A stretch of 64,000 nucleotides of DNA, from NCBI GenBank assembly GCA_965223865.1, contig OZ245020.1, positions 128,001-192,000 on the forward strand. The letters are read 5' to 3'. Positions 1 to 14,118 of this stretch are shown piece by piece (the stretch's first letter is position 1; each line of letters starts with the position of its first letter). The notes below the pieces were generated by a model. It was not told the origin of the DNA. It did not search any database and worked only from the letters and a program-made list of their open reading frames with translations. The DNA is from Nitrosarchaeum sp. (GTDB lineage Archaea; Thermoproteota; Nitrososphaeria; Nitrososphaerales; Nitrosopumilaceae). The translations under genes were made by a program, and so were the position numbers.

Positions 1-1274
1 TTCATCCTGTAATAATTGCTGATGGTTACAAAAAGGCATTAAAAAAAGCAATAGAATTTCTCTCTGAGATCACAATCAACGTAGAGTCAAAAGACAAGGA
101 AGTACTTGAAAAGATAGCAAACACGTCGATGCAGACAAAACTTGTGTCAATTGAGGCAACTGACCTTGCCAAACTGGTGGTTGATGCCGTGTTAAAAGTC
201 ATTGAAGAAAAAAATGGGAAATTTAAGGTAAATCTTGATAACATAAAGATAGAAAAAAAGGCAGGTGGTTCTATCTCTGACAGCGAACTGGTAAGCGGTA
301 TAATACTTGATAAGGAGATAGTTCACAGTGGGATGCCAAGAAAGATTGAAAATGCAAAGATTGCTTTGATCAGCGACGCGCTTGAGATCAAAAAGACAGA
401 GTTCGAGGCCAAACTAAACATCTCATCGCCAAACCAGATAAAGTCCTTCATGGAAGAGGAAAGCCAGATACTAAAAGACATGGTAAACAAGATAAAATCA
501 ACTGGCGCAAATGTTGTCTTGTGCCAAAAAGGTATTGATGATATTATTCAGCATTATCTGAGCAAGGAAGGGATGCTTGCAGTTAGAAGAATCAAGGAAA
601 GCGACATGACAAAGCTTGCAAAAGCAACTGGGGGAAGAATAGTTGGAAGAGTCGATGACCTAAATGACGCTGAATTGGGCCTGGCTGAAAATGTGGAGGA
701 GAGAAGAGTGGAGGAGGATAACTGGGTGTTCATTGAAGGATGCAAGAACCCAAAGGCCATTAGTATTCTTGTACGGGGTGGCTCTCAGAGGGTGATTGAT
801 GAGGCAGACAGGTCTATGCATGATGCATTGATGGTGGTAAAAGATGTTATTGAAAAACCAGCAATAGTATATGGAGGAGGTGCTCCTGAAGCATTTATTG
901 CACTAAAACTTAGAGAATGGTCAAAGACGCTTTCTGGCAGGGAACAGCTTGCAGTAGAAAAGTTTGCAGATGCCTTGGAATCTATTCCACTTGCGCTTGC
1001 AAGAAATGCTGGAATGAATCCCATTGATACAATCACCCAATTACGATCAAAACAGAGTACAGGAGAAAGGTTCACCGGTGTCGATGTCATCAATGGGACA
1101 ATTGCAGATTTTGAAAAACTGCGGATAATGGAGCCAGTCAAGGTCAAGGAGCAGATAATAAAGTCAGCTACTGAGACTGCAAACATGATACTGCGAATCG
1201 ACAATGTTGTTGCGTCCTCAAAAGGTTCTGCTATGCCACCAACTGGAGGAATGCCTGGAATGGGAATGGAATAG
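1..1274 (+). CDS. Thermosome (group II chaperonin) subunit, 5'-truncated by window edge
   Basis: Frame open from window start (HPVIIADGYKKA); motifs CQKGIDD, GGGAPE, LARNAG, ATETANMILRID; GGM-rich C-tail. Confidence 0.97.
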   Translation, partial: HPVIIADGYKKALKKAIEFLSEITINVESKDKEVLEKIANTSMQTKLVSIEATDLAKLVVDAVLKVIEEKNGKFKVNLDNIKIEKKAGGSISDSELVSGIILDKEIVHSGMPRKIENAKIALISDALEIKKTEFEAKLNISSPNQIKSFMEEESQILKDMVNKIKSTGANVVLCQKGIDDIIQHYLSKEGMLAVRRIKESDMTKLAKATGGRIVGRVDDLNDAELGLAENVEERRVEEDNWVFIEGCKNPKAISILVRGGSQRVIDEADRSMHDALMVVKDVIEKPAIVYGGGAPEAFIALKLREWSKTLSGREQLAVEKFADALESIPLALARNAGMNPIDTITQLRSKQSTGERFTGVDVINGTIADFEKLRIMEPVKVKEQIIKSATETANMILRIDNVVASSKGSAMPPTGGMPGMGME

Positions 1275-1548
1275 CCAAACGGCAGGTTTGCCCGGTTGAC
1301 AATGAATGATTCAAGTGTTACTTGAACAAGTGGGAATGTATGAGAGGTAATCATAGAACTCCTGCATTGATACTCTATCATGGAGAACTATGCCAGTATT
1401 TTGAGTATTAAAATGGACGCAGATAGATTTGCACATCTAATGCTGATTACAGAGCATTGACCACACAGAAAAAAAGTCTTACGAACAGAATTTCAGTTTT
1501 GCAAATATGATGCTAGGTTTTATTATTATAAATTAAAATCGGTCATAG

Positions 1549-2754
1549 ATGGTATCAGAGTTCGATGTAGTTCCAACAATTATCGGGGTTTTATTTTTAG
1601 TTTTACCCGCGTTACTTTTGGGCAGGCTATGTTCTCATTTTAAAATACCGGAAATCATCGGATTTGTTTTTGCAGGAATAATCTTAGGTCCTACTGCTCT
1701 AGGAGGCTTAATTCCAATTTTTGACAGACCAATTGTTGAACTAAATGATGTGATGCTAGCTTTATGGCAAATTTCTGGAATTATAATTCTATTTTCAGCA
1801 GGGTTACATTTTACATTTCATGACCTAATCAAGGCAGGTCCAAAGGCTGCAATAATTGGAATTTTTGGGGTAATTGTGCCACTTGTTACAGGATACTTTA
1901 TTGTACTTTGGATTGGTTTTGACTGGACAGTTGCAGTACTAATTGGAGCAACGTTTAGTGCCACAAGTATTGCGGTATCAATAGTAATTTTAGAAGAATT
2001 AGGAAAAGAGAAAAGCAAAGAAGGAAATATTTTGGTCAATGCAGCAGTGCTGGACGATGTTTTAGGTCTTGCAATTCTTTCTGCAGTAATTTCTTTGGTT
2101 GCATTAAATACAATTCCAACAATAGAATCTGTAGCAATTACAACTGTAACTGAAATAGGATTTTGGTTTTTGATATTACTTGGTGCAGTCTATATTCTAC
2201 CAAAAATTGTACATGTCGTTTCTAGAACACATCCATCTACTTTGGAAGCTAGAGGTACAAGACAAGGTGTTGCATTAGGTTCTGCATTTGGTTTAGCTGC
2301 AATTGCAGCTAGTGTCGGGTTAAATCCTATCGTAGGTGCTTTTGCAGCAGGTATGGGTCTTGCAGGATCAAAACTAGTAGTACAGGTTAGAGAATTTGTT
2401 GGCAGATTACAAGTGATTGTTTCACCTTTATTTTTTGCAATAATTGGTGCTCATGTAGACATCACACAAATCTCATCAATCAACTGGGGTTTGTTTGCAA
2501 TACTTTTAGTTGTAGCAGTAGTTTCTAAAGTTCTTGGCTGTGGAATACCCGCATCGCTTCTGCTAAAAAGTAAGAAAAGTGGTTTTCGAATTGGATATGG
2601 GATGGTAGCTAGAGGAGAAGTAGCATTCATTGTTGCAGGAATTGGATTGGCTTTTGAGGTACTTTCAGATGAGATTTATTCTACAATGATCTTTGTGATT
2701 TTGGCCACAATTTTCATTGCACCAATATTACTGAGAAATTCATTCAAATCATAA
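1549..2754 (+). CDS. Cation:proton antiporter (CPA2/NapA-Kef family)
   Basis: ~12 TM helices; motifs FSATSIAV, AAVLDDVLG, GAFAAG, RGEVAFI. Confidence 0.93.
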   Translation: MVSEFDVVPTIIGVLFLVLPALLLGRLCSHFKIPEIIGFVFAGIILGPTALGGLIPIFDRPIVELNDVMLALWQISGIIILFSAGLHFTFHDLIKAGPKAAIIGIFGVIVPLVTGYFIVLWIGFDWTVAVLIGATFSATSIAVSIVILEELGKEKSKEGNILVNAAVLDDVLGLAILSAVISLVALNTIPTIESVAITTVTEIGFWFLILLGAVYILPKIVHVVSRTHPSTLEARGTRQGVALGSAFGLAAIAASVGLNPIVGAFAAGMGLAGSKLVVQVREFVGRLQVIVSPLFFAIIGAHVDITQISSINWGLFAILLVVAVVSKVLGCGIPASLLLKSKKSGFRIGYGMVARGEVAFIVAGIGLAFEVLSDEIYSTMIFVILATIFIAPILLRNSFKS

Positions 2755-2790
2755 TTTTTTTAAAAAAATTATTACGTGTGGATGCTTTTC

Positions 2791-2810
2791 TTAACCTCAA
2801 ATATATCCCC
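2791..2810 (-). mobile_element. Putative right terminus of an upstream casposon-like element (reads GGGGATATATTTGAGGTTAA on minus strand)
   Basis: ATATATCCCC abuts the 14-bp TSD copy at 2811-2824; GGG(G)ATAT is the typical casposon TIR terminus; partner end not in window. Confidence 0.55.
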
Positions 2811-2824
2811 AAGCACATCCTGCT
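2811..2824 (+). repeat. Left target-site duplication AAGCACATCCTGCT (14 bp)
   Basis: Identical to 8379-8392; both copies directly flank the TIRs. Confidence 0.93.
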
Positions 2825-2896
2825 GGGGTACTATAACAGCGCTCCATTTAACGCCCCCTGGATAGTATACCAAAAAGGGTCCTGATCAGTAACCTT
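2825..2896 (+). repeat. Left terminal inverted repeat (72 bp)
   Basis: GGGGTACTATAACAGCGCTCCATTTAACGCCCCCTG...CCTGATCAGTAACCTT; reverse complement of 8307-8378, first 36 bp perfect, 3 mismatches overall. Confidence 0.95.
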
Positions 2897-2972
2897 GAAA
2901 CTTGTTATGAAACCAAACGACTACACACAACAAAAAATAACTATTCCGAGGATAAAGCCAATTCATTCGTGA

Positions 2973-3644
2973 ATGAATATGGAAACTGACCCTGATGATT
3001 TACAGAAAATGAGCGAATTGGCCAATTGGTTTGAACAGCGCAAAAATGAAATTCCAAACATAGACAGATTAATTCACAAACTTAGAAACGACCAACAATT
3101 AGGGCACCTTGTCAATGCACAATTTGTAAAACAATTTCATGAAGATGGAACTTTCAGAGTTACTGATGTTGAAGCCAGCACTGGCGATAACGATGTAGAT
3201 ATCGAGTTAGACCATAAAATCAATATTCAAACTTGGCACGGACAAAGCACAGCAGGACACATTATGGAGTCTCAATTTGACAGGAAGGGAATGCAACGAA
3301 ATGTACGGTTAGGGAACATTTCCCCGTTGGGGGGAATCAATAGTGATTTTGATAAAGACTGTCAAGTCATGAAAAAGAAACTAAGTCAATTACCTGATGA
3401 CAATTTCGGCATGGTTTTACTGTTAGACAGATTTGTTGGAATGACAATTTTTCCAGATTGGTGGGACGAGATTTCAGATAACAAATGTGTGGTTAAACTG
3501 AGTTACGTCAGTCACGATACGGGATTCGATAACGTATACGGAGAATCTGTAGTATATCATTCAGATAATTTCCAACAAATGAATAAAGCAAAAGAAATTA
3601 TCAAAGCATTAAAGTTTAATTTCAAAGCAGAAAATATTCCGTGA
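2973..3644 (+). CDS. Hypothetical protein, possible PD-(D/E)xK-like fold
   Basis: 223-aa ORF; DNDVDIELDHKINIQTW loosely resembles a restriction-endonuclease-like active site. Confidence 0.55.
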   Translation: MNMETDPDDLQKMSELANWFEQRKNEIPNIDRLIHKLRNDQQLGHLVNAQFVKQFHEDGTFRVTDVEASTGDNDVDIELDHKINIQTWHGQSTAGHIMESQFDRKGMQRNVRLGNISPLGGINSDFDKDCQVMKKKLSQLPDDNFGMVLLLDRFVGMTIFPDWWDEISDNKCVVKLSYVSHDTGFDNVYGESVVYHSDNFQQMNKAKEIIKALKFNFKAENIP

Positions 3645-3656
3645 ACTGAAATACAA

Positions 3657-4355
3657 TTACTTTGTAATGTGCCCTTTCAGTCTGTCGACGATTCTATGTA
3701 CTTCCTTTTCTGAAAACTGTTCCTTTCTGCCTTCAATAAATGAATTAATTCTATTCAAATCCGTAACTGAAACAAACCTGTAATTGGAATTGTATTTCAT
3801 ATTTCCACGGACAGATAACAAGACACTTGTGACGGGAGGGTTTTTCGGACTACGCCAGGATTTTAATGCAATCCATAACACTCTTCCAGCTCTGTCTACC
3901 TGTTCATGCGGACTGAGGTTCTCGTTTTGATTATAGTATTGGGTGCTCCAGTTTTTGACTTCGATTAGAACTATTCCTCTATTAGACACTACGACAAAGT
4001 CCATTTGTGCAGATTTTAGATTCTTTCTTCCATTGTAAGTTACGTAGTTTGGCAATTCAAAATTTAATCCACACATGACATGAAAATTATCAGACAGTTC
4101 AGATAGTTTTCCCAAGACACTTAATTCCCCATTTGCACCAGCATGGAACGGGTCGTCCTTGTTTTTCTCAAACCTGTTAACCTGTCTTTGTTTGTTCCAT
4201 TTTTTGATGCCTCCAAAAAATCCCTTGTGTTCTGCCTTTAGTTCTTCTTTTAATTCCTGATGAACTCTGTCAATGTCTTCTATTTTCTTTACTTTTCTCG
4301 GATACAAGTCAAGAAGTTCTTTTTCACTTTCAGCACGACCGTAAATTATGGCCAA
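3657..4355 (-). CDS. NERD (nuclease-related domain) protein
   Basis: GANGE...QMDFVVVSNRGIVLIEVKNW...SPHEQV motifs typical of NERD. Confidence 0.88.
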   Translation of the reverse strand: MAIIYGRAESEKELLDLYPRKVKKIEDIDRVHQELKEELKAEHKGFFGGIKKWNKQRQVNRFEKNKDDPFHAGANGELSVLGKLSELSDNFHVMCGLNFELPNYVTYNGRKNLKSAQMDFVVVSNRGIVLIEVKNWSTQYYNQNENLSPHEQVDRAGRVLWIALKSWRSPKNPPVTSVLLSVRGNMKYNSNYRFVSVTDLNRINSFIEGRKEQFSEKEVHRIVDRLKGHITK

Positions 4356-4453
4356 TATAGTGACGTTTGTATATTATTGAAAAAACGTTTTGTTTTACAA
4401 AAACCCTGTTTTTTAAAAAAGCATTTAACTCAACAATCCAAACCTCATACATC

Positions 4454-5250
4454 ATGCAAATGAAGAGATTTCGAGTCCAGAATTACAAGAAGGTTGAAGA
4501 TACGGATTGGGTAAAATGTGATAATCTAACTGTGTTTGTAGGGAAAAATGAGTCAGGCAAATCGGCCATTTTTAGAGGTCTTTCAAAACTTAACCCCTCA
4601 GATGGTGAAATCTATGATGCACTTAAGGAATTTCCAAGAAGGAGATACTCTGAATATAAAAATAGAATTTGGCCTGTGAGTAGTGCTGAATTTGAGTTAG
4701 AAAAAAATGAAATTGAAAAACTTTGCGAAATTTGTGACCCACTTAGAAAAATAAAAAGCGTTATTGTAACTAGATTTTATGACGATAGTCTGAAGGCTGA
4801 ATTTGAACCAAAACCAGATATTGATTCGTTATTAGTAAAAGATTACTTAAACTCAATAAAATCATGGAAAAAACAAATTGAAAAAACTGTAGCCCCTGAA
4901 GGAAAAGGGGAAATTTTAGGGCAAATTAAAAATAATTTTAATCAAGTATTTGATAGTACAATTGCCAAATTAACAGATGAAGATGAACTGTCTTCCGTTG
5001 ATTCTACAATAGTTAAAGAAGTAACAGATACACTCAATTCTAACATCAATGAAGAATGGCAACAAAAAATATTTGATTCAGTTATTGAAGAAAATGACAA
5101 ACTTTCAACAAGAATTGAAAAACGAGATGATTTAGAAAATGCAAAAAATTGGATTTATGAAAATATACCTCAATTCATTTATTTTGATAAATATGATGTT
5201 TTAGATAGTGCAGTTCACATAGACCGATTTATCCAAGACTTGAACAAAGA
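4454..5250 (+). pseudogene. N-terminal fragment of OLD/GajA-like ABC (AAA_15) ATPase
   Basis: MQMKRFRVQNYK start, Walker A VGKNESGKS; no signature, Walker B or TOPRIM parts; runs out of frame into unrelated sequence near 5250. Confidence 0.8.
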
Positions 5251-5525
5251 CACTATCCAAGAAAATAAATCTCAAACCTGCTGGAATTACAGTAAAATCC
5301 TTGAAGGGGAGGTGGGGCAGCGCAACATCCAAAGGAATCATTACTCTGAATTCTAATTTAATTAAGACGCCAAAGAAGGTAATTGATTACATCATAATTC
5401 ACGAATTGTGTCACTTGAATGTAAAGGAACATTCCAGAACATTTTGGAATCTTGTTTCAAAGTATGACAAGGACTATACTAAAAAGGAAAAGTGGTTGTC
5501 AGACAACCATGTAAAAATATCCTGA
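5244..5525 (+). pseudogene. C-terminal fragment of YgjP/DUF45 (SprT-like) metalloprotease
   Basis: LSKKINLKPAGITVKSLKGRWGS...IDYIIIHELCHLNVKEHSRTFW; N-terminal part missing. Confidence 0.85.
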
Positions 5526-5537
5526 GTGCTTTCTAGG

Positions 5538-6029
5538 TTAATCATCTCCTGTCAAGACATGAAGTGCAATTAATCCAATCAATAAAAGTACCAATCCAAA
5601 CTGTCCATGCAACAACCTGTTGAAGACTTTTGTGTGTCTTGAGGAAGTGTATTTCAACAGAATTCCGCTAATCATCAAGACTGTCATTGTAATTGCCAAT
5701 GACAGAGAAATGGAATCCAAGTCATTTACAAGAAGCAGTCCATGCGACATTCCTGCAAAATAGCCAATTGAATTAAGAATAATGTGAAAGTTCAGAACTG
5801 GTTTGTAAAATTGAACTGCCTGTCTTGCCATCACTAATGATTGACCGCCTGCGCGTACAGCGTATTTTCTCCACTTGTTAAATACGATAAAAGGTAGATT
5901 TGCGACAACTCCTGCACCAATAGCCACCCATCCCAGGCTCTCTACTGCGTCTTCAGCGTCATCGTCTGCAAATACGGGTATTGGTACTAAAAATAATAGA
6001 AAAATAATAGGGAAAATTTTGAGATTCAT
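5538..6029 (-). CDS. Membrane protein with paired intramembrane His (cytochrome b/ferric-reductase-like)
   Basis: Signal peptide plus ~4 TM; FHIILNSIGYFAGMSH and LHGQFG...ALH histidine pairs. Confidence 0.6.
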   Translation of the reverse strand: MNLKIFPIIFLLFLVPIPVFADDDAEDAVESLGWVAIGAGVVANLPFIVFNKWRKYAVRAGGQSLVMARQAVQFYKPVLNFHIILNSIGYFAGMSHGLLLVNDLDSISLSLAITMTVLMISGILLKYTSSRHTKVFNRLLHGQFGLVLLLIGLIALHVLTGDD

Positions 6030-6033
6030 CGGA

Positions 6034-6357
6034 TCAACTCGATTTCATCTGAGGTCTTTTGGCTTTGTAGATTTTGTATCCCGTATATGCAACAGAGCCT
6101 ACAATCACTGCAATGGTTCCATAAAGAATTGCATCTGGTATCCCTCCGCCTAGTGCAAGTCCCTCATCATCGTCATCTTCCTCATCATCTCCTCTTTCCC
6201 TTTCCTGTTCTCTTGCTTGTTCTCTTTCAGTCTCACCAAATCCTCTCTGTTCATCATCTTCATACTCATCATCGTCATCTTCATCAGCAAAGACTGTGGG
6301 AACTGTAACAACAGAAAGTGTTAGAATCAAAAATAGACCAAGTGTGAGTGCCTTCAT
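6034..6357 (-). CDS. Exported, highly acidic protein with C-terminal TM anchor
   Basis: Signal peptide ending VFA, Asp/Glu tracts, C-terminal hydrophobic helix and basic tail. Confidence 0.8.
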   Translation of the reverse strand: MKALTLGLFLILTLSVVTVPTVFADEDDDDEYEDDEQRGFGETEREQAREQERERGDDEEDDDDEGLALGGGIPDAILYGTIAVIVGSVAYTGYKIYKAKRPQMKSS

Positions 6358-6770
6358 TGCTTTCTCACCCTTGTGCTTTCATGTTGCAACCATGGCTCTT
6401 TTCTGATTTGAGCCCATGCCAGTACGGAACCAATTACTACTCCTACTTGAAGTACTTTTGATACGATTCCCAAATGTCCTATTCCTCCAGCACTCATTCC
6501 GAAAACTGCAGCCATGTCAGTTCTTGTAACTGCATACAATGCAATTATTCCAACAGTTCCAGCTATTGTTACAGCATATGGAAGTGAACTGTTTGAACTC
6601 TTTAGCATCCAGACTGCAACTGGAATGTAGGCAACTGCCACAACCAAGAAGAATGGACCTTTTATCATGTCTTGTTCTTCAAACAACTCTTCTGATGTCT
6701 CTACAAAATAAACAGTAGAAGTTGCTATCATAAGACCAACAACAATTCCAATTATTGATTTTTTGTTCAT
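6354..6770 (-). CDS. Hypothetical membrane protein (4 TM)
   Basis: Hydrophobic ORF overlapping the downstream gene by 4 nt. Confidence 0.8.
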   Translation of the reverse strand: MNKKSIIGIVVGLMIATSTVYFVETSEELFEEQDMIKGPFFLVVAVAYIPVAVWMLKSSNSSLPYAVTIAGTVGIIALYAVTRTDMAAVFGMSAGGIGHLGIVSKVLQVGVVIGSVLAWAQIRKEPWLQHESTRVRKQ

Positions 6771-6810
6771 GATACTATTACGTGAAAGTGAATATAATGC
6801 GTATTCATCA

Positions 6811-6827
6811 TTCCCAAATTTTGGGAA
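6811..6827. promoter_or_regulatory. Palindromic operator TTCCCA-N5-TGGGAA
   Basis: Perfect 8-1-8 inverted repeat upstream of the 6770 operon; same consensus as 7494-7510. Confidence 0.55.
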
Positions 6828-6834
6828 CGGTTTG

Positions 6835-7173
6835 TTATTCTGAAAACTTTTGCCAAAGCCTTACAATCTTGTCTTCCATCTTTACATGTTCAAGTTTGTA
6901 TGACAGTTCTCCATCTCTAAAAGTTACAATAATTTCATAGGTCCAGTTTTTGTAATAGCTTTCATCAAGGCCTTCCAAAGTTCTTACTACTTTGGTCTTC
7001 TTTACAATGTGTAGTTCTTCCAGCTTTCGTGTCTTGCGGTATGCAGTTGACTGTGGAATGTTTAGCAGATTGGAGATTTGCTGTATGGTGAGTTCTGTTT
7101 TTGACAATAGTGTTATTATCTTTCTGCTCTGTTTGTCAGACAACACATCAAGAATTTCGTCTGTTTCATCCAT
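6835..7173 (-). CDS. ArsR-like winged HTH transcriptional regulator
   Basis: LDVLSDKQSRKII...LTIQQISNLLNIPQSTAYRK wHTH. Confidence 0.88.
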   Translation of the reverse strand: MDETDEILDVLSDKQSRKIITLLSKTELTIQQISNLLNIPQSTAYRKTRKLEELHIVKKTKVVRTLEGLDESYYKNWTYEIIVTFRDGELSYKLEHVKMEDKIVRLWQKFSE

Positions 7174-7174
7174 T

Positions 7175-7441
7175 TCAGCTTCGTTTTACAGCCAATATCA
7201 GAACAATAAAACCTGCAATCTCGATTCCTTCTTCTAATATTTCTCCTAGTATATGGTCTTCAAACACAGAAACAACATCCCCCATTATGGTATCGCCTAT
7301 TACTATTAATGAAAAACCAACCGCTAGAAGGGCCATTGGAGGATATTTTGTCTTCTTGAATGCCTTCATAGCAAGGTAAACCAAGGCAAAACCAACTATG
7401 ATGTGAATAACTAGTATGGCGTAATGAATTTCCTGAACCAA
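7175..7441 (-). CDS. Small 3-TM membrane protein co-transcribed with wHTH regulator
   Basis: 88 aa hydrophobic; stop lies 1 nt from the regulator start. Confidence 0.8.
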   Translation of the reverse strand: MVQEIHYAILVIHIIVGFALVYLAMKAFKKTKYPPMALLAVGFSLIVIGDTIMGDVVSVFEDHILGEILEEGIEIAGFIVLILAVKRS

Positions 7442-7493
7442 TATTTCTCCTCCATTCTAATTGTGATTCTGGATTTAAAGGACATATCTACCA

Positions 7494-7510
7494 TTCTCAT
7501 GAATTGAGAA
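7494..7510. promoter_or_regulatory. Palindromic operator TTCTCA-N5-TGAGAA
   Basis: Inverted repeat in the divergent promoter region 7441/7628. Confidence 0.55.
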
Positions 7511-7627
7511 TCATTTTTGGAGATTCTAAATTTTGATTAGCTGTTACAAAAATTTGAAATCAAGTTTGATTTTCATTAGTGAAAATTATATAATCTGTAT
7601 ATACTTTGCAAGGCTATTTTCTGTAAC

Positions 7628-8293
7628 ATGGTAAGTCAGTATGTCTGGATTGGCATTGCTGTTGGAGTTTTTGTAGCAGGCATTGGAATTGGTTTTGCAG
7701 CATTACAGGGCTCATCTCCAGCACCAGTTATGATGTCTCCTCAACAAATGCCACAGATGATGTCTGACCCTGAATTTAGGCAACAAATGAGAGACAACAT
7801 GAGCCAAAATCGACAATTTATGCAAGAGGCAATGCAAGACCCAGAATACATGCAACAGATGCATTCAACGATGATGGAAAACAGACAACACATGCAAGGA
7901 ATGATGGGTCCTATGATGAATTCCATGATGGATGATCCTGAATTAAGAGAAGAGATGATGAATACAATGTCACAACATCAGGCAATGATGCAGTCTATGA
8001 TGCAGAATCCAGAAATGATGAATATGATGAATCAGAATATGATGGGGTCAGGTATGATGGGACAAGGCAAAGGAATGATGAGTGGAGGTATGGGCCAGAT
8101 GATGATACAGGACCCTGAGTTGCTAGAGCAATTCAAACAACAAAAACTAGAACATCAAAAAATAATGAATGAGTTAATGTCTGGAGATATGAATGACCCA
8201 GCAGTACAACAGAAGCTCAAAGACCAGATTGAAGAACATCAAAAATTCATGGACGAGTTAATGAATCAGCTTAATTCTCAAACTGGTCCATAA
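7628..8293 (+). CDS. Membrane-anchored Met/Gln-rich protein with STI1-like DPE/NPE repeats
   Basis: N-terminal TM; about 46 Met in 221 aa; recurring (D/N)PE motifs. Confidence 0.85.
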   Translation: MVSQYVWIGIAVGVFVAGIGIGFAALQGSSPAPVMMSPQQMPQMMSDPEFRQQMRDNMSQNRQFMQEAMQDPEYMQQMHSTMMENRQHMQGMMGPMMNSMMDDPELREEMMNTMSQHQAMMQSMMQNPEMMNMMNQNMMGSGMMGQGKGMMSGGMGQMMIQDPELLEQFKQQKLEHQKIMNELMSGDMNDPAVQQKLKDQIEEHQKFMDELMNQLNSQTGP

Positions 8294-8306
8294 ATTCTAT
8301 TTTTCA

Positions 8307-8378
8307 AAGGTTACTGATCAGGACACTTTTTGGTATACCATTCAGGGGGCGTTAAATGGAGCGCTGTTATAGTACCCC
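8307..8378 (-). repeat. Right terminal inverted repeat (72 bp)
   Basis: Reverse complement of 2825-2896. Confidence 0.95.
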
Positions 8379-8392
8379 AAGCACATCCTGCT
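8379..8392 (+). repeat. Right target-site duplication AAGCACATCCTGCT
   Basis: Identical to 2811-2824. Confidence 0.93.
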
Positions 8393-8429
8393 GCCATTAC
8401 GATTTGAACCACTTTTCAGAGTGCAAAAT

Positions 8430-8451
8430 AAATCGGCCTAACTATATCCCC
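8430..8451 (-). mobile_element. Putative further casposon-like terminus (GGGGATATAGTTAGGCCG on minus strand)
   Basis: TATATCCCC at 8443-8451, same 9-mer as 2802-2810. Confidence 0.45.
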
Positions 8452-8668
8452 AGACAGGTTGTACTTCCAACTAATTTTGAACCGATTGTAAATACTTCTC
8501 TGAGATTAGTGATTGTATTTTTTTGTCTAACTACCAGCAAGGCTGAATTTGAGCTTCGTAGTTTATCTTCATTTTAATGAATATTCATCCAAATTTCATC
8601 TATAAAATAAACAAGTTTAAAGAAAAATTATTTCAGATTTAACTTCTAGTTTGACTATTACTCATTGT

Positions 8669-8800
8669 TTGAAAGAAGACTATGCAGAGTATACAAAGTG
8701 TGAAAGCTGTGATGCACCGCTACTTCTATGTGACTGTAATTGCCCAAAGTGTGGTAAAAGACAAGAGTGTAGATGCGAGCTAATGCCAATTGCCAATTAG
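8669..8800 (+). CDS. Cys-rich microprotein (43 aa, 8 Cys)
   Basis: MKEDYAEYTKCESCDAPLLLCDCNCPKCGKRQECRCELMPIAN, TTG start; translated by hand. Confidence 0.6.
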   Translation: MKEDYAEYTKCESCDAPLLLCDCNCPKCGKRQECRCELMPIAN

Positions 8801-8982
8801 AACTGTGATTTCCTAGATTAATAATCATCATTTCAGTCTATAAAGAAATTTCAAGGTGACATTTTTGATGTTCTACACATCTCAAGTTTTTTGCCAATCT
8901 ACCAATATATTGGATCTATCATTGGTGATAAATGGTAATAGTTGGTTTTTATTACCAATAAGTAATTCCAAGGTGTGCAAAT

Positions 8983-9861
8983 ATGAGTGATCTTAACGTA
9001 GCTGTTGTCATAAAATTAGAACCAGATTTTTCAGAAGGAAACGTAAGTTACAATCCAGATGGAACCCTAAATCGAGCTGAAACAAAGAATACTTTGGGTC
9101 CACACAGCGCAATTGCAGCTCATGCTGCATTTTATGCCAGAGTGATGTATGGTGCTAAAGTCTCTATTGGAACGATGGGTCCTCCAAATGCAGACATTGC
9201 ATTACAACAAGCTCAGCAAATCTCTGATGCAGAAGAGCTTCACCTGTATAGTGACAGATTGTTTGCAGGTGCTGATACTCTGGGAACTGCCGAAGTTCTA
9301 AAGACAGGAGTTGAAAAGATGCAAGGAAAGATGGATATTGTTTTTGCAGGACACAGAGCATCTGATGGTGAAACAGGACAGACAGGGCCACAGGCAGCAT
9401 GGAAGCTTGGATTTACTTTTCTTGGAAACGTAATTAGTTATAATTTAGATATGGAAACTAGAATTATTCGTGCAAAACGATTGATTAGTTTGCAGGGTGC
9501 TCCTGATGTAATTGAGGAAGTTGAAGCTCCACTTCCAGTATTCATATCAATTGATCCAACATACAAGTCAAGCTTTGATAAGGTATCTCAACGACTTGCA
9601 TTTCAGAAATATCAAAAAGAAGCAACAGAGAGAGCAGAGAATTTTAAAGATTATTTCAAAATTTTTAATGCCAAAGAATTAGGAGTTGATGAAACTCTAG
9701 TGGGACTTCCAGGTTCACCAACAATAGTTTACAAAGTTGAAAGAGTTCCAAAATCTACAGCTACTAGAAGAGCTGAAGTAGTAGATGGCTCTGATCCTGA
9801 ACAACTCCAAAAGGTTGTAGGAAAAATGAAAGAAGCCTTGGAGGCAATGGTGATAAAGTGA
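8983..9861 (+). CDS. fixA: Electron transfer flavoprotein beta subunit
   Basis: TMGPP, DRLFAGADTLGTA, GHRASDGETGQTGP, GLPGSPT. Confidence 0.95.
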   Translation: MSDLNVAVVIKLEPDFSEGNVSYNPDGTLNRAETKNTLGPHSAIAAHAAFYARVMYGAKVSIGTMGPPNADIALQQAQQISDAEELHLYSDRLFAGADTLGTAEVLKTGVEKMQGKMDIVFAGHRASDGETGQTGPQAAWKLGFTFLGNVISYNLDMETRIIRAKRLISLQGAPDVIEEVEAPLPVFISIDPTYKSSFDKVSQRLAFQKYQKEATERAENFKDYFKIFNAKELGVDETLVGLPGSPTIVYKVERVPKSTATRRAEVVDGSDPEQLQKVVGKMKEALEAMVIK

Positions 9862-11045
9862 TGGCAGAAAAATATCGACACCTATACGTCGTAGTTGAAA
9901 TTGAAGAAGGGCAAATTCTTCCAGTAAGCCTTGAGATGATCGGAGAGGCAAGACGTCTTTTAGATGATTTTAATTCAAAATATTCTTCTAAGGAAAAAGT
10001 TGTTGCAGTTATGTTAGGACACAATGTAAAAGATTTCTCAAAACAGCTAATCGAGTACGGTGCTGATGCTGTAATCTATTCAGACAATCCGGAACTAAAA
10101 GATGTAAGAAATACCATTTACACCAAAATCATTAGTCAGATTGCACAAGACCCCAAGACTTTGGGAGAGATAGAAACAGAGTATGCAAGTGAGATAAAAA
10201 GACCAAGATACATGTTTTTTGCAGCAGACAGCATAGGCAGGCACCTCTCCTCTACAGTTCTAGCAGAATTAGAATCAGGTCTGGCCTCTGATATCAACAA
10301 ACTTGTAATTGAGGACATTGAGATGTCTCACCAACAAAAGACTGCAGGTAAAAACGAAACCTATGAAAAAACCCTAGAGATGTACAGGCCTGACTTTTCA
10401 GGATTCTTGTGGACTACAATTCTTTGTCTTGATAACCGCAATCCAGCTTTTCAGCGAGACTATCACCCACAGTCTTGCAGTATCATTCCAGGCGTATTTG
10501 AACCAGTAAAACCAGACTCAGCACGTGAGGGAAAGATAATTGAATTTGTTCCGAGTCTAGACCCACAAGATCTCAAAGTAAAGGTAATAGGCAGACAAAT
10601 AATTGAAAGCGAGGTTGATTTTGAGACTCCTCGAACAATCGTATCCTTTGGCAGGGGAATAAAAGAAGACCCAGAGAAAAATATCAAACTAATCGAAGAG
10701 TTGGCAAAGCAATTAAACGCAGAAATTGGTGTGACCTTACCAATATCTAAAAAACCATACCAAGTAAGTTCTGCCTTGGATTCAAAGTATATGATTCCAG
10801 ACAGAGTCATTGGAACTAGTGGACACAAGACAAGTGCCATGTTATACATTGCAGCAGGAGTCAGCGGCGCGATGCAGCATGTATGGGGAATGAAGGATTC
10901 AGGATTTGTAGTTGCAATTAATCCTGATGAGGAGGCCCCAATCAAAGATGAGTGTGATGTTTTCATAAAAGGAAGATTAGAAGATGTGATTCCTCGATTA
11001 ATTGAGGAGATAAAAAAGCAGATACAAATTGTGGAGGCATCGTAA
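9858..11045 (+). CDS. fixB: Electron transfer flavoprotein alpha subunit
   Basis: FGRGI, IGTSGH, GVSGAMQHVWGM, VAINPDEEAPI. Confidence 0.95.
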   Translation: MMAEKYRHLYVVVEIEEGQILPVSLEMIGEARRLLDDFNSKYSSKEKVVAVMLGHNVKDFSKQLIEYGADAVIYSDNPELKDVRNTIYTKIISQIAQDPKTLGEIETEYASEIKRPRYMFFAADSIGRHLSSTVLAELESGLASDINKLVIEDIEMSHQQKTAGKNETYEKTLEMYRPDFSGFLWTTILCLDNRNPAFQRDYHPQSCSIIPGVFEPVKPDSAREGKIIEFVPSLDPQDLKVKVIGRQIIESEVDFETPRTIVSFGRGIKEDPEKNIKLIEELAKQLNAEIGVTLPISKKPYQVSSALDSKYMIPDRVIGTSGHKTSAMLYIAAGVSGAMQHVWGMKDSGFVVAINPDEEAPIKDECDVFIKGRLEDVIPRLIEEIKKQIQIVEAS

Positions 11046-11046
11046 T

Positions 11047-12915
11047 TTGGAAAAATATGATGTTGCAATAATTGGTGGAGGCACTGCAGGACTAGCTGCT
11101 CTAAAACAGTTATCAAATCTTGGCAAGCAAGCAATTCTACTGGAGGCAGGATCAGAGGTTGGCTCAAAGAATCTCTCAGGTGGAATTCTTTACTCAAAGA
11201 AACCAAAGAAGGGAACTGTAAATAATGTAGAGCAGGTCTATGAGAATTTTTTAGATGATGCTCCTTTTGAGAGAAAGATAACAAAGTATGTTTTGCACTC
11301 AACATCAAAAGACAAGATCTACTCGATGGATCTTACTGCAGCACACGAGTATCAAGCAAATTTTGGATATTCTGTTTTGTTGAACAAACTAAATTCATGG
11401 TTTGCAAGACAAGCAAATGATGCAGCTGAAAAACTAGGTGGCGGAATAATTCCAGGTGTGCATGTACGCTCAATTACCTGGAATGATAGTGGTAGTGCTG
11501 TAATTCAGACTGATGAGTTAGATGAATTTGAAGTCAAAGCAGTAATTGCAGCTGATGGAGTAAACTCTGAAATTGCTGAAATGGTAGGTGCAAGACCAAA
11601 GTTCACACCAACACAGTTGTATCAAGGAGTAAAAGTAATTGTAAAACTTCCTGAAGAGATTATTGAGAAGAGATTTGGAATCTCATCAAATGAAGGTGCA
11701 GCCCATCTATTTGCAGGAGATGTTACACTAAACCATATTGGAGGGGGATTTCTGTATACAAATTCAAATACACTTTCAGTTGGTGCAGTATACCACTTTG
11801 ACTCTCAGTTGTCAAATCCAACTGAACCATACACCCTCATTGATGCACTTTTGAAAAATCCAATGATAAGTGAATTTATCAAAGATGATGTACCAATCAA
11901 AGGAGAAATCGACAAGAATCTTCCACAAGAAGAACAGTTACGAATTCGCTTTGCAGTAGCAAAGCAAATCAAAAACTGGAATGAGATCCGTGAGGCACAT
12001 CTGTCATCAAGTGGAAGACAACGACTAATTGATTCAGGCAAATTCAAGACTGAAGAAGCAATTGCAACTAGACTATCTAAAATTGAAGAGATGCTAGACA
12101 AGTTGGGAGTAACTTTTGGTTCAGACTATGTAGAGGCAGAATATGGGGCAAAACTAGTTCCTGATGGAAAGAGATGCAGGATGACAAAGCCATTTTACAA
12201 AAATATCTTATTTGTCGGAGATGCAGCAGGCAGAGGAGTCTTTGTTGGTCCAAGAATTGAGGGACTAAATGTAGGAATAGATGATGGAGTAAGAGCAGCC
12301 AATGCAGTAGCAAGGGCAATTGACAAGAATGACTTTTCATCTGATTATCTAGGTGAATACTATTCTCAGCAGACAGAGGAGAGTCCATACACCACAGATA
12401 TGAAACAGATTGACAAGGATTACCTCAAGATTTTTCTTGATGCAGCAAAAGATGTACCAAAAGATATCATTGGATCACGCTATGGCCCAATTTTGAAAAT
12501 GATGTCAAGTGGAACCTTGCGAGGCATTGCTGTAAAGTTTGCAAATATTTTAGGATACGAAAAACTTCTTCCAATGGTAGAATCAGAGGACACCTACGTA
12601 AAGGTGCCAATTGAGCTTGCCGAACGCCTAGGTGAGACAGTATCTACAACCTATTCTCCAAGTATTCCCTCAATTGCAGACAGAATTGCAAATCTAAGTT
12701 ACAATGATGATAACTCATCTCACATCAAGGTTCTAAAGCCTACTAGTGAATATATGAAAAAGATGGTAACTCTTTGTCCTGCAAAGTGTTACACAGAAGA
12801 AGGTGGAAATGTCATAATACAACACGAGGGATGTGTAGATTGTGGAACATGTTCACAAGAAACAGAGTGGAGACATCCCCGTGGTGAAAAAGGAATTCAT
12901 TACAAGTACGGCTAG
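11047..12915 (+). CDS. fixC: FixC (ETF:quinone oxidoreductase-type flavoprotein) fused to FixX ferredoxin
   Basis: YDVAIIGGGTAG Rossmann, GSKNLSGG, VGDAAG; C-terminal CPAKCY...CVDCGTC...WRHPRGEKGIHYKYG; TTG start at 11047 likely. Confidence 0.92.
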   Translation: MEKYDVAIIGGGTAGLAALKQLSNLGKQAILLEAGSEVGSKNLSGGILYSKKPKKGTVNNVEQVYENFLDDAPFERKITKYVLHSTSKDKIYSMDLTAAHEYQANFGYSVLLNKLNSWFARQANDAAEKLGGGIIPGVHVRSITWNDSGSAVIQTDELDEFEVKAVIAADGVNSEIAEMVGARPKFTPTQLYQGVKVIVKLPEEIIEKRFGISSNEGAAHLFAGDVTLNHIGGGFLYTNSNTLSVGAVYHFDSQLSNPTEPYTLIDALLKNPMISEFIKDDVPIKGEIDKNLPQEEQLRIRFAVAKQIKNWNEIREAHLSSSGRQRLIDSGKFKTEEAIATRLSKIEEMLDKLGVTFGSDYVEAEYGAKLVPDGKRCRMTKPFYKNILFVGDAAGRGVFVGPRIEGLNVGIDDGVRAANAVARAIDKNDFSSDYLGEYYSQQTEESPYTTDMKQIDKDYLKIFLDAAKDVPKDIIGSRYGPILKMMSSGTLRGIAVKFANILGYEKLLPMVESEDTYVKVPIELAERLGETVSTTYSPSIPSIADRIANLSYNDDNSSHIKVLKPTSEYMKKMVTLCPAKCYTEEGGNVIIQHEGCVDCGTCSQETEWRHPRGEKGIHYKYG

Positions 12916-12920
12916 ATCAA

Positions 12921-13595
12921 CTAGACAGTAACTTTAACAGTTTTTAGTTCATCATAGGCTTTTCTAATTTCAGAGTAGTACTCTGGGAGTTGTGGAGGAA
13001 GTAAAGTAAATCCAATGTAAAAGTCCTCAGCTTCTCTTAGATACCTCTTTATTTTCTCATGTTGAGGAACTTGAGCCATAAATTTCATGTTGTTTATTCT
13101 ATCGGCTAGCTTGATTATCTTTACATCATATTTTGAACTGGACAGATCAGAGCAGTATTCAAAAAATCTTTGTTGCTTTTTTTCCTCCTCATTAGAACCT
13201 GTAAAGTTTTCAATTGGTTTTGTTTTTAATATCATGGAATTGTTGTAGACATAGTCTCCAAATCTGTGTTTAAAGTATGCATCAAATCCATAAGCTTTTG
13301 CAGAATAAAGATCTAGGATTTTATCATTGTCTTCCATGACATCATGTAAAACTGCTGAGACAATCTGAAGTGTGGTAAGAAGTTTGTCAGTACCTTGATA
13401 ATGTTTGATTACATCTAGAGTGACAGGCCATACATGAGTTTCAAGAAATGAAGACTTGCCATCTTCTCTTGTAATTTCTAAATGAACTTCTTCAGCTAGT
13501 TCTATTGCGTTTTCAACAAAACTATCAACTATAATTTTTGCATCATTTTCAATGTATGATATAAGATCCTCTCGTGTTACTTCTTGAATTGTCAC
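12921..13595 (-). CDS. HD-domain hydrolase, RelA/SpoT-hydrolase (Mesh1/HD_4)-like
   Basis: H...SAVLHDVMED...IIKLADRINNM motif order. Confidence 0.8.
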   Translation of the reverse strand: MTIQEVTREDLISYIENDAKIIVDSFVENAIELAEEVHLEITREDGKSSFLETHVWPVTLDVIKHYQGTDKLLTTLQIVSAVLHDVMEDNDKILDLYSAKAYGFDAYFKHRFGDYVYNNSMILKTKPIENFTGSNEEEKKQQRFFEYCSDLSSSKYDVKIIKLADRINNMKFMAQVPQHEKIKRYLREAEDFYIGFTLLPPQLPEYYSEIRKAYDELKTVKVTV

Positions 13596-13674
13596 TAACT
13601 ATCAATAGGTAATTATCATTCAAAAACTTGTTTATTGCTACTTTGAGGCGCGAACAAGTGATAGATTATTGTAT

Positions 13675-14118
13675 CTAAGAATAGTATTCTTTGAATCCCT
13701 TGTCAGTAGGATATAGCTCAATTTTTGGACCAAACAATCCTTGTTTTTGTTGTACCTTTAGAAGTCCTTTTTTTTCTAGATCCTCTAAAATTGAATCAAG
13801 TTCTTTATTGTCAAAACCTGTGTTTTTTTGAATGCTTTCAAATGTTTTTGATCCTCTGTTTAGTTCTCCTAAAACAAGCATCTTTTTGCTTTGAGGCTTT
13901 GAAAAGTCTCTTTGAGGTTTTGTAGATTCCCTTTGAGGTTCTGAAAAGTTCCGTTGAGGTTCCCTGTATTCATCAAAACTTTGTCGAAATTCATTTTCTT
14001 GAATGGTTTGAGGTGAACCATCCCTCATTTTTCTTCTAGCCAAGAAACGAGGAATGATCCTGGCAAGCGGGATTATTAAAAAAATCAGCAAATAAATCCA
14101 AGAATAATCTGTGGCCAT
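13675..14118 (-). CDS. Membrane-anchored protein with C-terminal wHTH-like domain
   Basis: N-terminal TM, PQR repeats, C-terminal LEDLEKKGLL...LYPTDKG. Confidence 0.75.
   Translation of the reverse strand: MATDYSWIYLLIFLIIPLARIIPRFLARRKMRDGSPQTIQENEFRQSFDEYREPQRNFSEPQRESTKPQRDFSKPQSKKMLVLGELNRGSKTFESIQKNTGFDNKELDSILEDLEKKGLLKVQQKQGLFGPKIELYPTDKGFKEYYS
13891..13961. repeat. 21-bp imperfect tandem repeat (~3.4 copies) encoding 7-aa PQR units
   Basis: TTGAGG recurs at 13891, 13912, 13933, 13954. Confidence 0.75.

Follow-up and report, generated by a model that had tools for sequence, protein, structure and literature searches.

Casposons, transposons built around a Cas1 integrase, are proposed ancestors of the adaptation machinery of clustered regularly interspaced short palindromic repeat (CRISPR) systems, by a route that leads through solo ends and repeated leader-proximal insertion. 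Here we analyse a window of 64,000 nucleotides (the whole stretch of DNA under study; positions 128,001 to 192,000 of contig OZ245020.1, assembly GCA_965223865.1) from the ammonia-oxidising archaeon Nitrosarchaeum sp. It contains a 5,554-bp element, B, which is probably a non-autonomous casposon, that is, a cargo-only derivative of such a transposon, inserted leader-proximally beside an older casposon end, A. Below, G000 denotes the genome that holds the window, and the other G and L codes denote genomes of relatives, fetched loci and contigs.

The crystal structure of the Methanosarcina mazei (MetMaz) casposase contains ends reading 5'-TATATCCC linked to a 14-bp target whose first bases are 5'-CGCAC; the enzyme generates 14-bp duplications (PMC6977970). 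An engineered mini-casposon lacking Cas1 is mobilised in trans in vivo and inserts into the left duplication of the casposon already in place, giving a tandem (PMC10359463). Isolated casposon ends lying by a conserved target motif, in genomes or loci without the complete element, are termed solo terminal inverted repeats (solo-TIRs) and have been proposed as possible intermediates towards CRISPR arrays, and M. mazei SarPi was reported with three of them (PMC4779613). In the portions of the literature consulted, natural examples comprise tandem full-length casposons and a few Methanosarcina solo ends, the sole Cas1-less mini-casposon is the engineered one, and the record for Nitrosarchaeum consists of family-1 Cas1 only. 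Tandems that share a duplication, solo ends, and leader-dependent, specific integration are already described in those portions (PMC4779613, PMC6563490, PMC8464041, PMC6977970). A preliminary description of this locus had cassettes with different ends stacked on a duplication acting in the manner of a CRISPR repeat; its core is therefore of a kind already known.

Element B (window positions 2825-8378) opens with GGGGTACTATAAC at 2825 and closes with GTTATAGTACCCC at 8378. Its inverted arms, at 2824-2896 and 8307-8379, are 73 nt long and 96% complementary; the left terminal inverted repeat proper begins GGGGTACTATAACAGCGCTCCATTTAAC and occupies 72 nt inside the element (2825-2896, + strand), while the right one ends ...GTTATAGTACCCC-3' (8307-8378, - strand). 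The element is flanked by two exact copies of a 14-mer, AAGCACATCCTGCT, at 2811-2824 and 8379-8392 (both + strand). These are the only copies in the window at up to two mismatches (0.40 expected; two copies reached in 6 of 100 shuffles) and the only two exact copies in the genome. Directly abutting the left copy is ATATATCCCC (2801-2810), the 3' tip of end A (2770-2810, + strand), a degenerate casposon terminus of the class that we call type-1a. End A agrees with the type-1a pattern CCACGTGGGT-N16-TAACTATATCCCC at 17 of 23 specified positions, and its ACGTG is placed 37 nt from the tip, as in the pattern; over the whole window and both strands, only two places reach 17/23 of the end pattern.

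The right copy of the duplication is followed by a leader-like flank, GCCATTACGATTTGAACC (8393-8410, + strand), identical at 13 of 18 positions to a leader consensus, CCCAATCAAATTTGAACC, derived from 22 units described below. Next comes a third end, C (8411-8451, + strand; nhmmer E 0.021), which fills the 41 nt between this leader and a 14-mer of its own. End C is a solo end of the GTGCAAAAT...TAACTATATCCCC subtype, with GTGCAAAAT where type-1a has CCACGTGGGT; it scores 16/23 on the type-1a pattern, and its TAACTATATCCCC motif spans 8439-8451. The 14-mer after it, AGACAGGTTGTACT (8452-8465, + strand), matches the target consensus ATACACGTTGTGCT at 11 of 14 positions and B's duplication at 7 of 14, and has one exact copy in the genome. 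A second leader-like flank, TCCAACTAATTTTGAACC (8466-8483, + strand; 14/18 identical to the consensus), completes the series. The 9-mer TATATCCCC, part of the tips of A and C, occurs in the window only at 2802-2810 and 8443-8451 (0.29 copies expected; two reached in 2 of 100 shuffles), the latter copy being separated from B's right duplication by 50 bases (8393-8442).

On re-reading of the window sequence, the layout and coordinates that the preliminary description gave for the 14-mers, the 9-mers and the element at 2825-8378 all proved correct. Since end, 14-mer and leader matches are present at both sites, the window contains two neighbouring end/14-mer/leader units, with B inserted in the first. 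The suggested stacking of elements on one target applies to B, which lies directly against the older and different end A, but does not extend to C, whose own 14-mer and own leader make the locus two adjacent sites.

Several lines of comparison link these ends to casposases. The tip of ends A and C, TATATCCC(C), equals the published M. mazei casposon end, and the 14-mers of the locus, read from the leader, begin AGCAC, so that the locus resembles MetMaz family-2 casposons in its 3' tip and in its 14-bp duplication, which fits a casposase (PMC6977970), and in the match of relatives' casposases to the M. mazei enzyme. It further resembles them in having a sequence-specific target, composed of a duplicated segment that starts (C/A)GCAC from the leader and of the leader next to it (PMC6977970, PMC4779613), and in its tandem with a shared duplication and its solo ends (PMC4779613). 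In relatives, ends of the same families bound elements that encode casposases, and the casposon-type identity previously assigned to ends A and C thus stands. The element in G119 (L100, 3146-18968) has inverted ends matching at 32 of 32 positions and starting GGGGTATAGATGAGGAC, a 13-14-bp duplication, a 409-aa Cas1 (PF01867, 1.7e-56) and a PF03175 polymerase; its casposase matches PDB entry 6opm_A (M. mazei) at 8.2e-73 over residues 2-396. Ends of this type with 13-14-bp duplications also occur in G085 and G157. A casposase-bearing element in G075 terminates in a GTGCAAAAT...TGACTATATTCCCC end, the subtype of C. In G004, a 10.9-kb element (L031, 8440-19293) has type-1a ends and is flanked by AGCACAACGTGTAT as an exact duplication. 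It encodes the C-terminal half of a Cas1 (PF01867, 1.4e-22), which shares 57-64% identity with intact casposases of 405-447 aa in other genera of the family. Type-1a, type-1b and type-2 ends are all found on Cas1-bearing elements of relatives. The GGGGTATAGAT type of end is also present in this genome, at four ends, and the ends of B have no more than its layout in common with it. The Cas1 tallies across relatives include the unpublished genomes G103 and G117, on which no specific claim is built. The ends of B have the layout GGGGTA-N14-CATTTAAC, compared with GGGGTA-N15-C(A/G)TTTGAC for the casposase elements of G119, G085 and G157.

The ten open reading frames (ORFs) of B were scanned with Pfam, PADLOC and NCBIfam. 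Neither Cas1 (PF01867), nor a family B DNA polymerase (PolB), nor any other recombinase was found among them, and the HNH and HTH casposon core genes are likewise absent from these ORFs. By a strict definition of casposons, B thus has the terminal inverted repeats and the duplication of about 14 bp, and lacks the Cas1 integrase and family B polymerase; it has what defines a mini-casposon, namely casposon-type ends and a duplication around casposase-less cargo, beside a resident end. MetMaz casposons differ in possessing this core, and in their host. Cas1 is missing from the host genome as well, which is 99.98% complete in four contigs: a six-frame PF01867 search of the whole genome found no Cas1, and the G119 casposase as query returned only scraps (E 0.006 and 0.06). 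No casposon-type polymerase was found there either, the sole PF03175 signal being a sub-threshold one (19 bits) from an 852-aa polymerase among housekeeping genes. Since the genome has no casposase, the locus would be immobile unless an incoming casposon brings the enzyme. The end of B is a single copy in this genome and was not found among 60 relatives.

The layout seen at B recurs. In all four complete elements with an exact 14-bp duplication, one side is occupied by the leader; in three of them an older end stands opposite. These elements are B; E1 (G000 1337346-1349068), which carries hydrolases, a monooxygenase and TetR and HxlR regulators and has no Cas1 or PolB; an 8.4-kb element of G004 with B-like ends (L105, 2587-10997), with no Cas1 or PolB among its seven ORFs; and the Cas1-fragment element of G004, which has only a degenerate end-like stretch opposite the leader. 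A type-2 end at 1337331, beside E1, has no partner within 47 kb, and the weak PF03175 signal there is the polymerase of the housekeeping set. The M. mazei Go1 mini-casposon has the same organisation as B beside A, with ends and duplications around casposase-less cargo in a tandem (PMC10359463). That one is a laboratory construct, whereas B, E1 and the G004 element are natural, measure 5.5-11.7 kb, carry host-type genes and sit in genomes that have no intact casposase.

A scan for B-type ends returned one G004-like record from genome contigs and six contigs from metagenomes. In the six metagenome contigs the ends are near-identical over the first 60-70 nt. The contigs show at least five different flanks, with each end placed after a 14-mer; the leader stands on the far side of the 14-mer in L107 and L110, and a type-1a end does so in L111. 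The DNA just inside the end varies among them, and B-type ends have therefore moved, with different cargo, into the same kind of target. From these flanks, together with the engineered precedent, we infer that B could be mobilised in trans.

The ends, 14-mers and leaders form a repeated family. Of 151 genomes in the taxonomic family, 5 contain the type-1a end pattern at up to three mismatches, with 10 copies in this genome, 15 in G004, 6 in G006, 3 in G001 and 1 in G008; a reversed-pattern control gave 0 copies. Thirty distinct type-1a ends, from this genome and from loci fetched from four relatives, were examined. Twenty-two are followed by a 14-mer (consensus ATACACGTTGTGCT) and the leader, five by a 14-mer and the inverted end of another element, and three by something else. 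Genome-wide, TATATCCCC has 14 exact copies, most of them within one conserved unit of about 75 nt that reads TTCCACGTGGGT-N16-TAACTATATCCCC, then a 14-mer near ATACACGTTGTGCT, then CCCAATCAAATTTGAAC, the N16 part being not conserved. The suspicion that the two 9-mers of the window might be chance is thereby removed, because both are members of a repeated casposon-end family. End C matches the description of a solo-TIR, a single end beside a target-type 14-mer with no partner and no element body, and A largely does so (PMC4779613). Here, unlike in the published cases, such ends are many, fall into several subtypes and are nearly always coupled to a leader.

The leader contains a palindrome, TCAAATTTGA, and one leader copy lies about 80 nt downstream of ef-2. 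Whereas the MetMaz target involves a transfer RNA (tRNA) gene, the leader here is a short conserved sequence; an origin of the leader from a tRNA was considered and dropped, as the palindrome is present and no tRNA was called there. The base composition of the locus is unremarkable.

Taken together, B would have arisen as follows. A casposase supplied in trans would bind B's C-rich 3' ends and recognise a specific target, a 14-mer beside the conserved leader with its palindrome. Both ends would be joined 14 bp apart, and repair of the gaps would duplicate the 14-mer. Insertion would have occurred on the leader-proximal side of older end A, presumed to be where a decayed element, of which a Na+/H+ antiporter gene survives, terminates on the right; B would then be the newest of a two-member tandem. 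Fifty bases on, solo end C with its own 14-mer and leader forms a second, independent unit at the edge of a variable 21.9-kb island, and end/14-mer/leader units of this kind are present in multiple copies across this genome and the genus.

A number of observations weigh against this account. The ends of B are casposon-like in layout only, agreeing with the G157 end at about 19 of 32 positions in a hand alignment. The scans for B-type ends brought up no element that also bears a casposase; the metagenome contigs with such ends, at 1.2-5 kb, are too short to show a casposase, and none has Cas1 beside the end. The label "family-2-like" for the casposases of relatives reflects placement by PDB match and length, not by a tree. 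End A is degenerate and was missed by the profile search. No orthologous occupied/empty pair was found for B, whose flanks map to separate places in G004. A partial substitute comes from the B-like element of G004: at the corresponding site in G000, the leader comes after the homologous type-1a end and nothing is inserted, but G004 has 17.2 kb there, more than the element alone. Among four sequencing runs, no contig joins across 2825-8378; contigs of runs X19 and X22 span B and the metagenome runs X1 and X4 cover parts only, and as assembled contigs drop rare variants, excision is not judged from them. Nine of the ten leader-like sites in this genome adjoin an end; because the leader is nearly always found with an end, it could be a co-travelling unit and not a pre-existing chromosomal target. 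Finally, some elements, such as that at G000 1067058-1080391, have inverted instead of direct 14-mer flanks, which simple insertion does not explain. This element is the second of two segments of about 13 kb with type-1a ends at G000:C1 1053838-1080391, joined as end, 14-mer and inverted end at 1067031/1067058; its inverted flanks suggest a rearrangement between units over simple insertion.

The preliminary description went further and proposed an integron-like array of gene cassettes built by Cas1. An operating array of this kind, in which differing cassettes are captured serially at one CRISPR-repeat-like site, is unlikely. In its favour, heterologous end types use one type of target, new elements lie on the leader side, and the cargo-only elements hold ordinary genes. 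Two adjacent sites and the B/A tandem are indeed present; the window nevertheless has one intact cassette, and no Cas1 gene exists in this genome, with only fragments in G004, so that there is no sign of a working system for capturing cassettes. The 14-mer of C departs from the duplication of B at 7 of 14 positions and is accompanied by a separate leader, no array of more than two members was present in the loci examined, no promoter logic is seen, and the truncated genes in B look like decay rather than use. The partners predicted for such an array were not found either: genome-wide, neither 14-mer has an additional copy, and a left end of A or C with the matching 14-mer before it does not occur. 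CRISPR arrays have identical repeats of 24-47 bp, spacers of 26-72 bp and, usually, cas genes. The locus has 14-bp repeats of which the third differs at 7 of 14 positions, 'spacers' of 5.5 kb and 59 bp, and no Cas1. Integron cassette arrays are comparable in idea only, as cargo units beside a fixed site with the newest nearest; here every defining feature of an integron is missing: there is no IntI-type integrase (no PF00589 match in the window region or the island), no attI or attC, and the cassettes measure 5-12 kb and have inverted ends and duplications.

Two further points in favour of the array concern DNA without casposon ends. At G000:C1 650100-650305, a 93-bp segment with no recognisable casposon ends has a B-like right end on one side and a leader on the other, and is flanked by the sole two exact genome copies of ATACATGCTGTGCT (650167 and 650274), an exact 14-mer pair (650167-650287). 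In addition, the family-1 casposase of N. koreensis was reported to integrate DNA lacking casposon ends in vitro (PMC8464041). The segment has 89% identity over 66 nt to intergenic DNA at 1877820-1877885. Either end-less DNA inserted here like a spacer or the remnant of a deleted element could account for it.

It is quite improbable that the 75-nt unit is a functional or mobile module in its own right, a landing pad or a regulatory or RNA element, with A and C as module copies. The coupling of leader and end described above (22/30 ends; 9/10 leader-like sites) would fit such a module, and the leader is found directly before an end or an element body in the window and in G004. MetMaz-C1 was also reported at a new site along with its own duplication sequence (PMC10359463). 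Copies of the unit at 283.1 and 1349.1 kb bear the last ef-2 codons beyond the leader. Specifically, at the unit at 1475895 the end of the true ef-2 gene is reached about 80 nt past the leader (G000:C1 1475950-1476030), and the units at 283100 and 1349056 have diverged last ef-2 codons (GVNEFIDKE and GAKEFIEKE, each before a stop) and the downstream spacer past the leader, which indicates that flanking DNA on the target side was copied to other loci together with the end. On the other side, Rfam gave no RNA family in window 1-14000 at E <=1, the N16 part varies, and the ends share homology with genuine ends of elements that bear a casposase. The leader-end coupling, the ef-2 codon copies, the inverted 14-mers and the leaders directly before an end or body do suggest that end, 14-mer and leader can be copied as one.

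That B is instead a tyrosine- or serine-recombinase island or a DDE transposon, with an 18-bp repeat, CCCCAAGCACATCCTGCT, as att core and the 9-mers as coincidence, is very improbable: an 18-bp reading of the direct repeat is possible, the genome has four PF00589 matches, and thaumarchaeal att sites may be 8-26 bp long according to one account (PMC6563490), but those matches lie at 0.86, 1.63 and 1.86 Mb, no recombinase or transposase was found among the scanned ORFs of B and the 21.9-kb island, long perfect inverted ends abut the repeat, its extra CCCC is accounted for by end A, and the same ends with a 14-bp repeat bound Cas1-encoding elements.

The surroundings of the mini-casposon were compared with G004. 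Synteny, at about 93% identity, runs up to G000 114572, beside the histidyl-tRNA synthetase gene, and restarts, at 88%, precisely with G000 136439 (window position 8439), the base that opens the TAACTATATCCCC of C. Between these points lie 21.9 kb in this genome and a different 14.8 kb in G004. The island of this genome includes ZnuABC, NikR, two Usp genes, a thermosome paralogue, the antiporter gene and element B; in that of G004, the orthologue of end C is intact and the remnant of a Cas1 pseudogene is present. The idea that the whole might lie inside a larger outer element gains some backing on the right, where C bounds the island, but not on the left, where no end, 14-mer or leader was found at G000 114572; a candidate internal end near 118.4 kb was not confirmed. 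A non-coding segment of about 175 nt in the island (G000:C1 118759-118926) recurs with 84-88% identity at 1977803-1977976, inside an end at 1977977, and in G004, where it lies 370-560 nt inside the orthologue of end C.

The gene nearest the tip of A encodes a 401-aa Na+/H+ exchanger (1549-2754, + strand; PF00999, 5.4e-54). No partner end of A or C was found in the genome. Paralogues of this antiporter lie just inside three other ends (G000:C1 486247-487774, 775740-777031 and 849431-850804) and one in G004. Because the antiporter is retained beside A and its paralogues stand inside other ends, A marks a truncated, cargo-bearing element and is no bare end. The four Na+/H+ exchanger genes inside ends have 66-92% DNA identity to a G004 copy, and Usp genes sometimes adjoin them.

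The cargo of B begins with an ORF of 223 aa (2973-3644, + strand) without a match in Pfam, PADLOC or NCBIfam, followed by a NERD-domain nuclease of 232 aa (3657-4355, - strand; PF08378, 1.1e-11). The nuclease shares 51% identity with an ORF of G005 whose distance from Cas1 is 1.6 kb, and 48% with an ORF of the G138 casposon locus; published casposon cargo includes NERD and OLD nucleases (PMC6563490). Next is a truncated gene for an AAA_15 ATPase of OLD/AriA/GajA type (4367-5356, + strand), which runs into ygjP-derived DNA from about 5242. Its PF13175 match (1.7e-6, below the cut-off) covers profile positions 1-224 of 374, the first two thirds, and PADLOC AriA matches at 1.4e-8; among the proteins of B, PADLOC and NCBIfam matched only this ATPase and the regulator described below, all sub-threshold. 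It overlaps a 74-aa fragment of a YgjP-like metallopeptidase (5301-5525, + strand; PF01863, 4.9e-27), which retains only the final third of the domain (139-206 of 207 profile positions). B has undergone an internal deletion that fused the ATPase gene to the 3' end of ygjP, because homology of metagenome contig L112 to the window begins at 5242 and that contig has a longer ygjP open frame, of 165 aa.

Three genes for small membrane or secreted proteins of 163, 107 and 138 aa follow (5538-6770, - strand), with paralogues at G000 363394-364000 and 1568808-1569777 and in the G004 island. In this region, two contigs of run X19 skip 134 bases (window 6134-6269) within an acidic, repeat-rich ORF (6034-6357); the skip falls in a GAT/GAA-rich direct-repeat stretch and is probably repeat-length variation or an assembly effect. 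The remaining cargo consists of an ArsR-type winged-helix regulator (112 aa; PF01022, 5.9e-7) and a DUF7521 membrane protein (88 aa; PF24365, 6.5e-11), together at 6835-7441 on the - strand, and a Met/Gln-rich protein of 221 aa with no assigned function (7628-8293, + strand). Elsewhere, the G119 casposon carries defence-type cargo with a TIR domain and a WYL domain (L100, 15566-16303; PF13676, 1.4e-22; PF13280, 1.9e-6).

The family-1 casposons of thaumarchaea, such as NitAR1-C1 and the tandem NitNF5-C1/C2 in ef-2, are like this locus in host group, in the connection with ef-2, in forming tandems and in NERD and OLD cargo (PMC6563490). They differ in a 13-bp duplication, a GTTTT leader and a TTCTA end motif (PMC8464041). 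Their casposase, of about 334-347 aa, is 26% identical to the G119 type, and the ends and 14-mer of the window are unlike those of family 1. Unlike MetMaz, the related intact elements have a PF03175-type polymerase, described as typical of family 1 (PMC6563490). A casposon of family-1 type is present in the genus-mate G003 in the 3' end of ef-2 (C1, L030, 10583-19394); it has 27-nt ends starting TAAAAATAGAATCC, a duplication, CTCTCTGTCGA, and a 334-aa Cas1 whose match to 6OPM (1e-28) covers a part. The genus therefore hosts two unrelated casposon types.

In the literature as consulted, neither natural cargo-only casposons nor the ends described here were found, and the supplementary end lists of two papers (PMC6563490, PMC4779613) may bear on this; nor did the same sources yield use of one target by several end families or multiplied end/14-mer/leader units without a casposase. 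To what is in print, the locus and its relatives add natural cargo-only derivatives that measure 5.5-11.7 kb and have exact 14-bp duplications, the use of one target type by several end families, and at least 10 end/14-mer/leader units per 2-Mb genome without an intact casposase. A more far-reaching reading, tentative and on balance rather doubtful, is that in this genus casposons seeded many portable landing pads, each made up of one casposon end, the 14-mer and a leader, on which casposases from transient elements load Cas1-less cassettes of several end types, perhaps also short end-less DNA, always on the leader side. If so, a transposon and a CRISPR-like polarised array would be bridged by an intermediate still alive in these genomes, with natural capture of cargo by Cas1 acting in trans. 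Should mobilisation of B in trans hold, casposases would move ordinary host genes, among them those for ion transporters, stress proteins, hydrolases and defence, in ammonia-oxidising archaea, and the step from transposon to array would become testable with natural substrates.

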